A program made the position numbers and the translations under genes. Source: a virus. From it: a DNA stretch of 64,000 bases. Of the stretch, positions 18,688-24,796 are shown one piece after another. Location of the stretch: the IMG/VR virus record IMGVR_UViG_3300042923_000524, positions 73,948 to 137,947 of that record. The stretch is one strand, 5' to 3'. The notes below the pieces were generated by a model. The model was not told where the DNA came from. It did not search any database and saw nothing but the letters and a program-made list of their open reading frames with translations. Position 1 is the stretch's first letter. Each line of letters begins with the position of its first letter.

Positions 18688-19114
18688 TATTAAGGAGTTG
18701 TTATAATTGGCTATTATGACAGATAAAGAATTACAAAATATAGCAAGTGATTTATTTCGTAAATATTGGAATATGGATTTAACTATTTCTGTTTCGGTTA
18801 ATCCTAAAATGTATAAATGGTCTGCAAGATGTTACCCTATGACAGTTGGGAAACATTAATAAATAGAGGATATAAGAAAAGAATTTAGCAGTTTATTAAT
18901 TGCAGCCGAAAGGCTGTTTTTAATTTCACGACAAAACACTTCTTTCATGGTCATTACTGGAGCAGATTATTTTTAAAAATCATGTATCAACTTTAAACTA
19001 AAAGCATATAATAAATTAACCAAATACAAATATAAAACTTTTAAAATATTTGTTGACAGAAATTTCTAGCATATGTTATAATGAATTATCGAATAAATTA
19101 TAGAAGGTGAAATC

Positions 19115-19348
19115 ATGAAACAATATAGAACATCATATAAAAAAGTTAATGACTTATGCAACTTATTAGAGTATAGACTTGTAAAACATGAATGGTTAGG
19201 GAAAACAGATTATTTTTATAATTACTCTCTTGTAAAAGATGAAAACGGACGTTATAAAGAAACAATTCTAAAAACAACTAGCTTGAAAAATGTTTATGAA
19301 TGGTTATTAGAAAATGGAATCAATTATAATAATGGCATAAAATATTAA
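19115..19348 (+). CDS. hypothetical protein
   Basis: promoter, RBS. Confidence 0.65.
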   Translation: MKQYRTSYKKVNDLCNLLEYRLVKHEWLGKTDYFYNYSLVKDENGRYKETILKTTSLKNVYEWLLENGINYNNGIKY

Positions 19349-19350
19349 AT

Positions 19351-19419
19351 CTCGACTATGCGAGTATAAACAGACTTTAAGCATAGAGCGTTAACAGGTT
19401 TAACAGCCTGTTAGGTAGT
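19351..19419 (+). ncRNA. pistol self-cleaving ribozyme
   Basis: P1 ctcg/cgag, pseudoknot ctatg/catag, UAUAAACAG linker, P2 act/agt, UUAAGC, GCG, P3 ttaacagg/cctgttag, GU cleavage dinucleotide. Confidence 0.85.
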
Positions 19420-19778
19420 AATAAATAATAAATTAATAGGAGTGATTTATCAATGCCAAGTAAAACAGTAAGAGAAACGGAATATAATAAAACAATCCAA
19501 TATAAAGACGGACAAATGACATATTGTATCAACTATAGAAAAGAATTTCATAAATCATTTATAAATGGTTTTAGATGGGTAGAATGTTAATTCAATAAAA
19601 TCCAAATTTGGTCATCATGTAAAAATTTAGGAGGTGCGTATAATGTGTAGAATCTGTGGAGCAGAAACAAAAGAAACTATTTGTAAAGAGTGTCAAAAAG
19701 AATTAATCAAAGAAAACTATAACAAAACTTTTATTAAAATATCAAAATAAAAATATAAAATTATAGGAGAGTGTAAAA

Positions 19779-19991
19779 ATGAGCAATTACAATTTAAATA
19801 GCAAACAAGTAGCCTTAATTATACAATCCCTTTTAAATGATGCCTGTTTTTATGAATGTGATAATAAAGAATATGAAAAGACAGTTAAAAAAGAAGGGCA
19901 CGAACTAATTAACTTTTTATTAGAACAACACAATAAACAAGAATCAGAAACATTAAAACACTATAATAATTATGTTGAAGGAGTGAATTAA
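19779..19991 (+). CDS. hypothetical protein
   Basis: RBS. Confidence 0.6.
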   Translation: MSNYNLNSKQVALIIQSLLNDACFYECDNKEYEKTVKKEGHELINFLLEQHNKQESETLKHYNNYVEGVN

Positions 19992-20363
19992 AAATGAAAG
20001 ATTTATTTGAAAAATTAGAATATGCAAAAAAGGCGGTATTAAGAACATTAGAAAAAGAAAGTTGTTCAGTTGATTTTCATGGTTTATCATATTGGGCAAA
20101 TGAAGTAGAGCGTTTACGCAATGAAATTAAAAAGATATTATAATATTAAGAGAAGCCTGTAAAAAGGCTTTTTCTTTTATCTAATATCCAGACCAAATAG
20201 ATGTTTTATTGTCATATAATGTCGATAAGTTTTATAATAATTAATATAAAATTGAGCAAAATAATGTTGACAGATTAAAAACACGTATGTTATAATTAGT
20301 TATACCAATTAATTAGAAATTCAATAATAACAAATAACAAATAACAAATATAAAATATAAGGA

Positions 20364-21044
20364 GTGGAAATTATGAAAAAAACATTATATTTTGAAGGTG
20401 CAGGATGGTCGGGAGCAGATATAAGCCAAAGAACAATAGGAAATTGCAGAATAAGAACAGGATTCACAAACAACGAAGGAAGAAAAATCTATTTAGAAAT
20501 TACTGGTTATGAAAAATCAGCCAATGATAAAAAGATTGACAGATATTCAGAATATCAAGTTGGAGAAGCAATTGGATTTGTAGATTATTGTTTTTATATT
20601 GATACAGAATCAAAAGACCCTTGCAACGAATGCAGAATAAAAGACATAGAACATAATGCAAAATTTGCTTATACAAAAGAAGGTATAACAGAGTTTATTA
20701 ATAAAAATCTGAAGTGCAGCTTTGAAACTATCGAAGTATTGCCAGATTTAGGAGGTTACAGAGTACACGGAGATAACAAAACATATAGCATGATGGAAGA
20801 CTACAATCATAATTCAGAACTAATTAAGACAAGAGAAGAAGTTTACAATCATTTTTACGGACTTGAAAAATCAGAAGGTAAACAATATCCAAACTTCTCT
20901 TTATGGGTAGATGATAAAGACATTCACTTATTACACTTGTTAAGACATTTTAATGGTTATAATAAGCATTGGTCAATTCATACCGATATAGAAAACTGGA
21001 AAGAAACAATAACAGAAACCAAGTTGGGAAAATATGCCTGTTAG
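20364..21044 (+). CDS. hypothetical phage protein
   Basis: 226-aa ORF, promoter, RBS. Confidence 0.75.
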   Translation: MEIMKKTLYFEGAGWSGADISQRTIGNCRIRTGFTNNEGRKIYLEITGYEKSANDKKIDRYSEYQVGEAIGFVDYCFYIDTESKDPCNECRIKDIEHNAKFAYTKEGITEFINKNLKCSFETIEVLPDLGGYRVHGDNKTYSMMEDYNHNSELIKTREEVYNHFYGLEKSEGKQYPNFSLWVDDKDIHLLHLLRHFNGYNKHWSIHTDIENWKETITETKLGKYAC

Positions 21045-21149
21045 TTAATTATTTACTGTTAGAGTACACTATAACAAATATAAAACTATAGTGTACTCCA
21101 TAGAGTAAATAAAACTCTAAAAAATATAATAACAGGAGCGTGTTTATAT

Positions 21150-21551
21150 ATGATAAAAACATTTAAGAAAGAATTAAATAGCCACGATTACAATGAAATA
21201 AGAATAATTAATTTAGAATCTGGAGAATTTACACACTATTTTCAGGATAAAAATATAGGCTTTATATTTTCAGATTATACAACAACAGTATTTGAAATGG
21301 GCTATAAATCAGTTAAAGAATGCATTAAAGAACTAAGAAGCCGAGGTTTATTAGGTCAAGAAGTTGATTACAAAGAACAAAAAGAATCTGAAAGAATCGG
21401 TTATATTAAATTAGGCGTAGAGCGCATTAAAAGAGCAGGAAGAGTAAATACAAATGATTTTGAAGATGTAATAACAAAGCTATCAAAATATGGTATGGGA
21501 TTCTGTGATGCTCAAAATGTAATAACAGAAACATATTTATATCAAGCATAG
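21150..21551 (+). CDS. hypothetical protein
   Basis: RBS. Confidence 0.7.
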   Translation: MIKTFKKELNSHDYNEIRIINLESGEFTHYFQDKNIGFIFSDYTTTVFEMGYKSVKECIKELRSRGLLGQEVDYKEQKESERIGYIKLGVERIKRAGRVNTNDFEDVITKLSKYGMGFCDAQNVITETYLYQA

Positions 21552-21553
21552 CA

Positions 21554-21625
21554 ACAGGTCACAGCCTGTATAAATAGTGCTTTAAGCTGTGAGCGTGTCA
21601 AGGTATAACAGCCTTGACGATAGCA
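21554..21625 (+). ncRNA. pistol ribozyme (second copy, AU at cleavage junction)
   Basis: P1 acagg/cctgt, pseudoknot tcacag/ctgtga, AUAAAUAG, P2 tgct/agca, UUAAGC, GCG, P3 tgtcaagg/ccttgacg. Confidence 0.8.
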
Positions 21626-21652
21626 AAATAAAGGTTTAGGAGGTCGTTAAAC

Positions 21653-21961
21653 ATGAGTTATAATAAGGCTATGAAGCATTCAAACAATCATAGAAAAGAT
21701 AAATACTATCAACCAGTTTTAGGTATGCCCTTTGAAGGTTTAAAAGAAGGAGAGCATATAGAAAGCTATCAAAGTATAGCAGAAAGAACAGCAGAATCAT
21801 ATCATGTTAAAGCTTTTAACGAAATAAATAATACATGGGAAAGAATGTCTAAGGATTTTTTAACAGAATCAGAAGCGATTGACGAAAGTTTTATATTTGA
21901 CGAAAAGGGTTATAGAACTAGAATATATAGTGATAAAGATATGAGAGTTGCAGGATGGTAA
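21653..21961 (+). CDS. hypothetical protein
   Basis: RBS. Confidence 0.7.
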   Translation: MSYNKAMKHSNNHRKDKYYQPVLGMPFEGLKEGEHIESYQSIAERTAESYHVKAFNEINNTWERMSKDFLTESEAIDESFIFDEKGYRTRIYSDKDMRVAGW

Positions 21962-23351: not shown

Positions 23352-23795
23352 ATGAAATTTGCAAAGTATTATAATGTAACAAACAAAATGAACGAAATGA
23401 TTGAAAAGGGTGATTTATTTTCTTATGAAAAAGGTTTTTACAAAGGATTATATATCTGTAAAGATACTCATGATTTCTGGATTAGTAGAGTATTAGAAGG
23501 GTATAACAGCGAGTTTGAGCAAGAAGATGGAAAATGGTTGGTAGAGCGTAATAAAATAGATAAATATGACTTCTGTGAATTTTTAAAAGAAAAGAAAAAT
23601 GATGATTCTATAATAACAGATAGACGTACTAGAGATTATTATATAGATGAATGTTTCCAAGATGAAGTAATAATGGAAACACTAATACTTATGGATGATG
23701 ATAAAGGTCTTGAAGGATGGGATAACTATGAATGTGATAGTTATGAAGAGGCAGTTGAAGCCATTGATGGAGGCTACGGAATATTAACGACGTAG
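23352..23795 (+). CDS. acidic hypothetical protein
   Basis: 147-aa ORF, RBS. Confidence 0.7.
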   Translation: MKFAKYYNVTNKMNEMIEKGDLFSYEKGFYKGLYICKDTHDFWISRVLEGYNSEFEQEDGKWLVERNKIDKYDFCEFLKEKKNDDSIITDRRTRDYYIDECFQDEVIMETLILMDDDKGLEGWDNYECDSYEEAVEAIDGGYGILTT

Positions 23796-24331: not shown

Positions 24332-24796
24332 GGAGGTATAACAGCCATGCAATCAGCGAACCAGAGACAAACTGATTTTGAAGTACTAAAGACAACTAAT
24401 ATAAAATTAAACTATAACAGAAACCCAAATGAATTCAGCAAAACTATGAATATCACAATAACAGCAGCAACATTTATTATGATGGTTTTTCTAGCAATAA
24501 AGTTTCTATCATAAAATACATATAACAGTCACAAATACATATAACAGCGAACTAAGGAGGGGTCACAGTGAATGCAATTAGAATAATAGGTATAGATACA
24601 TTTGAATACTCACAAAGTAAGATAACAGCCGACATAACAACATACTGGAAAGAGTTGTATTGGAAGAATAACAGCTATTTGACGAGATACAGAACAGTTT
24701 ATGAAAACACATTATAAACACAAATATAAAACTATTGACACGGAGTAAACATATGTTAAGATTAAATTAATCAGAATAATCCAATATATTTAAGGA

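Follow-up and report, generated by a model that had tools for sequence, protein, structure and literature searches.

In phage T7, RNase III sites divide the early mRNA, cutting the polycistronic transcript into mRNAs with structured ends. Pistol ribozymes are fast, Mg-dependent self-cleavers that are frequently found near phage genes (PMC4604425). Their cut falls between two junction nucleotides; the 2-nt length of this junction is strictly kept, its identity is variable, and its GU dinucleotide has been called "modestly conserved" (Harris et al., PMC4604425). Clustered phage hammerheads cut polycistronic transcripts in vitro and have been proposed to generate gene-length mRNAs (PMC3088659). 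Self-processing of mRNA by phage ribozymes is now the standard, still unproven, hypothesis (PMC3088659; PMC6765202). A view of what may follow the cut comes from the glmS ribozyme of B. subtilis, the 5'-OH product of which is degraded by RNase J1 (PMC3328962; PMC11780869).

The locus described here belongs to an IMG/VR virus record of 137,947 bp with direct terminal repeats. The window, which is the whole 64-kb stretch of DNA that was analysed, comprises bases 73,948-137,947 of this record. The DNA has a G+C content of ~27%, and its + strand holds nearly all genes. The gene content, which includes partition and replication proteins, integrases, a MazF-like protein, an NAD-dependent ligase, and methyltransferases, marks a large temperate phage (~138 kb). 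Because a local gene has homologues in genomes and MAGs of Clostridia (Aminipila, Anaerocolumna, Oscillospiraceae, Lachnospiraceae, and Eubacterium plexicaudatum), the host, a low-GC Bacillota bacterium, is probably a member of the Clostridia. Two ribozymes are located in this phage, each at a boundary between genes. We consider it likely that both are functional pistols that split polycistronic mRNAs, which would uncouple the fates of the two halves.

Identification used cmscan with Rfam 15 at its curated gathering thresholds across the whole 64-kb window. Both elements match the Pistol family (RF02679) on the + strand over the complete model (positions 1-68 of 68): copy 1 at 19350-19420 with 64.1 bits (E 2.3e-09), and copy 2 at 21554-21625 with 59.9 bits (E 2.1e-08). 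These scores lie ~25-30 bits above the RF02679 gathering score of 34.5 bits, and the two pistols are the sole Rfam matches in the window at gathering thresholds. A permissive Rfam scan (E<=1) returned no further ribozymes in the window, and a gathering scan of the other 74 kb of the record returned none either, with one tRNA as the only match. These two pistols are, in this whole-record search, the only ribozymes of the 137,947 bp. The initial annotation had recognized a pistol architecture in both elements; the Infernal search bears this out, as each matches at full length with core nucleotides intact. At the level of sequence, both elements are confirmed as genuine members of the pistol class. 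They add two members to an established class, in a habitat already known for it, the intercistronic regions of phages, and nothing about them is new in kind.

In the covariance-model alignment, P1 of copy 1 pairs 19350-19353 with 19362-19365, and the pseudoknot pairs 19356-19361 (CUAUGC) with 19381-19386 (GCAUAG) at 6/6 positions (all on the + strand, as for every feature below). P2 joins 19373-19376 to 19417-19420 with 3/4 pairs plus a G-A, and P3 occupies 19391-19414 with 10 bp. The linker reads AUAAACA, UUAAGC lies at 19377-19382, and GAGCGU at 19386-19391; the 2-nt junction, G19415-U19416, places the predicted scissile bond between these two nucleotides. In copy 2, P1 pairs 21554-21557 with 21566-21569, the pseudoknot pairs 21560-21565 (CACAGC) with 21586-21591 (GCUGUG), again at 6/6 positions, P2 pairs 21578-21581 with 21622-21625 at 4/4 positions, and P3 occupies 21596-21619 with 9 bp. 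Its junction is A21620-U21621, with the predicted scissile bond between the two. Nested folding of both copies also yields P3 and the helix of the pseudoknot. Neither copy has lost the AUAAA.A linker, UUAAGC, or GAGCGU. Within them, copy 1 contains A19380, G19381, G19388, and G19390, and copy 2 contains A21585, G21586, G21593, and G21595. We take these to be the equivalents, in env25 numbering, of A32/G33 (in UUAAGC) and G40/G42 (in GAGCGU), with the general-base guanine presumably at 19388 in copy 1 and 21593 in copy 2.

Comparison of the two copies supports the earlier observation that the stems and pseudoknot differ in sequence and keep their pairing. Of 20 compared pairs, 10 are changed on both sides and are still canonical (two in P1, three in the pseudoknot, one in P2, and four in P3). 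Compensatory changes in every helix show that the RNA fold is under selection. A wider sample was obtained by scanning IMG/VR with a regular-expression core pattern, which gave at least 118 stretches; 86 unique elements were parsed from these, 77 of them confident. The survey relied on this core pattern and on simple ORF rules, rather than on a covariance model and a gene caller, and helices were parsed by script. As pairing in P2 and P3 was a selection criterion during parsing, unbiased statistics are limited to P1 and the pseudoknot. Among the matches listed, 77/77 unique phage pistols have canonical pairs at the three free pseudoknot positions, compared with 34-51 in shuffles, and the same 77/77 holds for P1 pairs 2-4.

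The two copies differ at the cleavage site. The GU of copy 1 (19415/19416) and the AU of copy 2, both named in the initial annotation, are read directly in the sequence; in copy 2, an A replaces the usual G at the nucleotide carrying the attacking 2'-OH (21620). One explanation would be that one or both copies are inactive relics, or merely stable hairpins or 3'-end protectors. Such a reading would accommodate this substitution, as well as the two non-canonical terminal pairs of copy 1 (U-U as the outermost P1 pair and G-A as the first P2 pair, the latter position being canonical in only 36 of the 77 surveyed pistols among the matches listed) and the lack of a ribozyme at the copy-2 junction of the nearest relative. 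Yet the highly conserved core positions are all intact in both copies, at ~60 bits or more, and the compensatory substitutions imply continued selection. The junction also varies in identity across the class, with only its 2-nt length strictly kept (Harris et al., PMC4604425). Among the matches listed, the cleavage dinucleotide is GU in 70 and AU in 7 of the 77 surveyed phage pistols (~9% AU); the six AU pistols besides copy 2 lie on other contigs and are otherwise perfect, including their pseudoknots. Because AU recurs at this rate (7/77, among the matches listed) and GU is only "modestly conserved", the AU site, as judged from natural variation, is a recurrent natural variant, not an anomaly or a sign of decay. 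Decay or a purely structural role is thus very unlikely for either copy.

Both ribozymes are placed between co-oriented genes by the ORF map, in agreement with the intercistronic position first assigned to them. The unit of copy 1 begins with a sigma-70-type promoter at 19053-19082 (TTGACA-18-TATAAT, TG-extended, 12/12). Its upstream cistron, at 19115-19348, encodes 77 aa without a family match and ends in TAA at 19346-19348; the pistol (19350-19420) follows after a 1-nt gap. The downstream cistron, which runs from its ATG at 19453 to 19590, encodes 45 aa and is preceded by the RBS AGGAG at 19438-19442. Copy 1 separates the first gene of its unit from four small genes (19453-20143), and a terminator-like hairpin with a T run at 20150-20173 closes the unit. 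The unit of copy 2 begins with a second promoter of sigma-70-type consensus at 20267-20296 (TG-extended, 12/12). Its first gene, at 20373-21044, encodes a 223-aa ORFan, and the cistron directly upstream of the ribozyme, at 21150-21551, encodes 133 aa and ends in TAG at 21549-21551. The pistol (21554-21625) follows after a 2-nt gap and precedes a 102-aa cistron, which runs from its ATG at 21653 to 21961 and has the RBS AGGAGG at 21638-21643. Copy 2 thus separates two genes from the third gene of its unit.

The gaps of 1 nt and 2 nt agree with the earlier statement that each element starts within 3 nt of a stop codon. Each also ends just before the next RBS, as had been noted, with AGGAG 17 nt from the ribozyme 3' end in copy 1 and AGGAGG 12 nt from it in copy 2. 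The distance from the cut to the start codon is 37 nt in copy 1 and 32 nt in copy 2, and the post-cut leaders (32-37 nt) are predicted to be unstructured, with z 0.47 for the copy 1 leader. Terminator-like hairpins at 18902, 20150, and 22020 divide the region. Each unit, from promoter to terminator, encloses one pistol that shares the strand of every flanking gene, and no terminator is found between the upstream gene and the ribozyme in either unit. Because promoters and terminators bracket both units, read-through transcripts must contain the pistols. Because a terminator and then a new promoter lie between the two pistols, they occur on different transcripts; splicing or circle formation between them is ruled out by the same intervening terminator (20150-20173) and promoter (20267-20296). 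A candidate internal promoter in copy 1 (19400-19429, 10/12) was rejected as a chance-level match in AT-rich DNA, where 80 such sites are found against 65 expected. The designation of this region as early is plausible from the host-type promoters and small accessory ORFs alone. The four flanking proteins have no significant family match in Pfam or PHROGs, and nearby these databases yield only a zinc-ribbon mini-protein and a weak indication of an HTH. The 223-aa ORFan likewise has no Pfam or PHROG match, and the ESM Atlas gave no usable match for it.

The survey places this arrangement in context. Among the matches listed, 49 of the 73 surveyed pistols with enough flanking sequence begin no more than 12 nt from the stop codon of an ORF (at least 40 aa) on their own strand, compared with 7.4% of random positions from the same loci. 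A stricter rule gives 43/73 among these matches, compared with 2.8% (binomial p ~1e-47). Also among the matches listed, the cut-to-start distance is 17-50 nt in 27/57 cases, ~79% of flanking ORFs share the strand of the ribozyme, and two or three pistols occur on several contigs. The placement of both copies is the norm for phage pistols and is not special. The flanking proteins are small (medians of 99 and 73 aa) and 76/99 are singletons, again among the matches listed, which argues for a generic role at the RNA level rather than a gene-specific one. A gene-specific role was rejected on two observations: the four flanking proteins here are without Pfam or PHROGs matches, and the flanks of the 77 pistols among the matches listed do not cluster. 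The placement rule is now quantified as a start at the stop codon, a leader of ~30-40 nt, and no tie to a protein family; functional models must explain it.

Proximity to the stop codon raises the question of whether cleavage is regulated, either gated by upstream translation or controlled by a factor binding the distal P3 that both copies share. With only 1-2 nt separating the stop codon from the ribozyme, a terminating ribosome would cover the P1 5' strand and part of the pseudoknot loop. Consistent with gating by translation, pistols are tight against stop codons in 49/73 cases and the stop codon overlaps P1 in ~10/70 cases, both among the matches listed; regulated cleavage has also been raised as a possibility for phage hammerheads (Perreault et al., PMC3088659). 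However, the spacing of stop and ribozyme follows no set register among the matches listed (-10 to +12 nt and more), as simple genome compaction would give, and spacers in this region are short anyway, at 2-50 nt. In vitro, pistols also need only seconds to minutes to cut (PMC4604425), so that a ribosome would probably come too late. As for a binding factor, the distal P3 is identical between the copies at 13/14 positions, compared with ~36% at other variable positions, and none of the 75 other surveyed pistols among the matches listed contains its motif. The exact distal-P3 12-mer nevertheless recurs in an ordinary RBS spacer at 24335-24346, which weakens the case for a dedicated binding site. 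Taken together, regulated cleavage appears unlikely.

Relatives of the locus indicate how such ribozymes come and go. Homologues of the 223-aa ORFan are present at ten IMG/VR loci and five genome loci. With the window counted, the gene or its homologue lies within ~3-4 kb of a self-cleaving ribozyme at 6/16 loci. The neighbouring ribozyme is a pistol at two of these (L008 and L009), a pistol with a twister-P5 at two others (L011 and L148, the latter an Aminipila MAG), and a pistol with a type II hammerhead at another (L015). Nearly all of the ribozymes in the relatives start ~3 nt or less from an ORF stop, and pistol, twister-P5, and type II hammerhead fill equivalent post-stop slots. For the 133-aa gene, the closest relative is L003 (64% identity), which has a 20-nt spacer in place of a ribozyme at the corresponding junction and contains no pistol or other ribozyme anywhere in its 150-kb record; in that background, the ribozyme is thus dispensable. 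From the slots in the relatives and the absence in L003, it follows that different ribozyme classes are gained, lost, and swapped at gene boundaries. That three classes can stand in for each other near a single conserved gene points to cleavage itself as the shared, selected property. Farther afield, SPbeta (NC_001884) is without a pistol, and Bacillus phage Chotacabras contains an unannotated pistol (74 bits; MN153503.1, 155940-156008) located 4 nt past a stop codon.

Shared DNA at these loci could instead suggest that the ribozyme serves mainly as a module boundary or linker for recombination between related phages, with RNA cleavage secondary. Upstream of the 223-aa gene, the ribozyme is the sole DNA similarity between the window and L008 or L009, the intervening small ORFs being unrelated, and, among the matches listed, hardly any flanking genes are related from one phage to another. 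The L008 pistol is also chimera-like, with a 5' half resembling copy 2 (88% over 43 nt) and a 3' half resembling copy 1. These features would fit a recombination boundary, but compensatory changes in every helix indicate selection on the RNA fold and not on the DNA. Replacement of one class by another in equivalent slots would give homologous recombination no help, and the conserved core stretches are only ~6-10 nt long. We regard a primary role in recombination as highly improbable. A combined reading, in which ribozymes are interchangeable punctuation of gene cassettes in Clostridia phages and act both in RNA cutting and as a junction for DNA recombination, has an outside chance of being correct. 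It would explain why, between unrelated small genes, relatives have only the ribozyme sequence in common with this phage, the chimera-like pistol of one relative, and the private distal-P3 sequence common to both copies.

Returning to the favored reading of functional pistols that split polycistronic mRNAs, the proposed mechanism likely involves: transcription by the host polymerase through the gene boundary containing the pistol; emergence, in order, of P1, the 6-bp pseudoknot, and P3, with the 4-nt 3' strand of P2 coming last; and self-cutting of the folded RNA by internal phosphoester transfer at G19415/U19416 or A21620/U21621. We infer that this cleavage takes place, probably co-transcriptionally, and that it is constitutive. 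The upstream message, containing gene 19115-19348 for copy 1 and genes 20373-21551 for copy 2, would then have the compact ribozyme fold and a 2',3'-cyclic phosphate at its 3' end. The downstream message would begin with a 5'-hydroxyl and carry an unstructured, A-rich leader of 32-37 nt with a strong Shine-Dalgarno site, the new end lying 17-22 nt ahead of that site. For copy 1, this message would contain the four small genes that precede the terminator at 20150, and for copy 2, gene 21653-21961.

Decay and translation of the two mRNA halves would now be uncoupled. The upstream half would gain a structured 3' cap, and the downstream half may be degraded faster via RNase J1, unless it is shielded by ribosomes bound at the RBS close by. 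Because RNase J1 degrades the 5'-OH product of glmS in B. subtilis (PMC3328962; PMC11780869), downstream cistrons could drop relative to upstream ones; this direction of the effect on expression is what we infer from that precedent. Self-processing of the mRNA into separate units, as a hypothesis, fits the context of the pistols here. With one ribozyme per unit, consensus promoters, and defined terminators, the locus provides a clean minimal test case, and one genome offers a natural GU/AU pair of cleavage sites.

Among known systems, the closest is the pistol class itself (RF02679; Weinberg et al. 2015; Harris et al. 2015, PMC4604425), the full architecture of which is common to both copies: P1, the 6-bp pseudoknot, the AUAAA-type linker, P2, UUAAGC with GAGCGU, a P3 closed by U-G, and a 2-nt junction holding the scissile bond. 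The setting is common as well, with Bacillota-phage hosts and frequent proximity to phage genes. Nothing categorical differs from the class; the AU of copy 2 is a minority variant (7/77, among the matches listed), and no other surveyed pistol among the matches listed has the distal P3 sequence that the two copies share. The prophage hammerheads of Perreault et al. 2011 (PMC3088659) provide the nearest parallel in arrangement. There, too, self-cleaving ribozymes are found at the boundaries of variable small genes, and the same role has been proposed for them, the conversion of long transcripts into gene- or operon-length mRNAs. Their arrangement, a sense-strand ribozyme between co-oriented cistrons of one transcription unit, is also seen here, and relatives of this phage extend the likeness with type II hammerhead or twister-P5 in equivalent slots. 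In contrast to those hammerheads, the ribozymes here belong to another class, and the two copies reside in separate units rather than bracketing one gene.

The glmS ribozyme (Collins et al. 2007, as cited in PMC3328962 and PMC11780869) serves as a model for the effect of cleavage on downstream cistrons, as it resides in a Bacillota mRNA and yields a 5'-OH downstream fragment that is an RNase J1 substrate. It differs in being ligand-dependent and in a 5' UTR, whereas pistols have no known ligand and are here located between cistrons. Like the RNase III sites of T7, the two pistols are intercistronic RNA elements that would divide a phage polycistronic transcript. The T7 sites depend on a host protein enzyme that leaves a 5'-phosphate and a 3'-OH, while the pistols are predicted to cut themselves and to leave a 5'-OH and a 2',3'-cyclic phosphate.

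The two pistol ribozymes of the window (copy 1, 19350-19420; copy 2, 21554-21625; both + strand) share a stretch of sequence in the distal part of helix P3. Here, 13 of 14 positions are identical (AGGTTTAACAGCCT at 19396-19409 in copy 1 and AGGTATAACAGCCT at 21601-21614 in copy 2), as compared to ~36% identity across the remaining variable positions. None of the 75 other phage pistols surveyed carries the TAACAG motif in P3. A 12-mer of the distal P3, GGTATAACAGCC, is repeated exactly at 24335-24346, where it lies in the RBS spacer (tagGGAGGTATAACAGCCATG) preceding a gene that starts at 24347; it also recurs with one mismatch within a gene, at 23500-23511.

The pistol of a related virus contig, L008 (L008:3093-3167), matches both copies, each over a different half. 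Its 5' half resembles copy 2, with 88% identity over 43 nt (window 21554-21596), while its 3' half resembles copy 1, with an identical P3 base and P2 strand (window 19360-19441). When the window is compared to L008 or to a second relative, L009, DNA similarity 5' of the shared 223-aa gene is limited to the ribozyme. Recombination at or within the ribozymes could be the source of both the two-way match and the ribozyme-only similarity.

The shared gene (window 20373-21044) encodes a 223-aa ORFan with no match in Pfam, PHROG or Atlas. Its homologues were collected from Clostridia prophages and IMG/VR contigs. At 6 of the 16 loci examined, window included, the gene or its homologue lies within ~3-4 kb of a self-cleaving ribozyme of the pistol, twister-P5 or type II hammerhead class. 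This may be one of a set of "ribozyme-associated" phage genes.

Two further features were observed in the region. A perfect 12-bp inverted repeat with a 13-nt loop (GAGTACACTATA / TATAGTGTACTC; 21062-21073 / 21087-21098) separates the 223-aa gene from a 133-aa gene. No T tract follows it on the 3' side. Possible roles other than termination are those of an operator or of a hairpin for RNase III-type processing or stabilization. The operon 3' of copy 1 encodes a 35-aa CxxC...CxxC zinc-ribbon mini-protein (19643-19750), whose matches to double-zinc-ribbon Pfam families are weak and fall under the cut-off.

A pistol also occurs in a cultured virus, Bacillus phage Chotacabras (Herelleviridae). This 74-bit element (MN153503.1, 155940-156008) begins 4 nt past the stop of CDS 261 and is not annotated in the record. 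Chotacabras is a tractable system for tests of pistol function. In relatives, the twister-P5 and type II hammerhead elements (L011:3639-3707, L015:3258-3318 and L148:2451-2519) start 0 to ~1 nt from the stop of the upstream ORF. The pistols and these other ribozyme classes follow an identical packing rule against the upstream stop.
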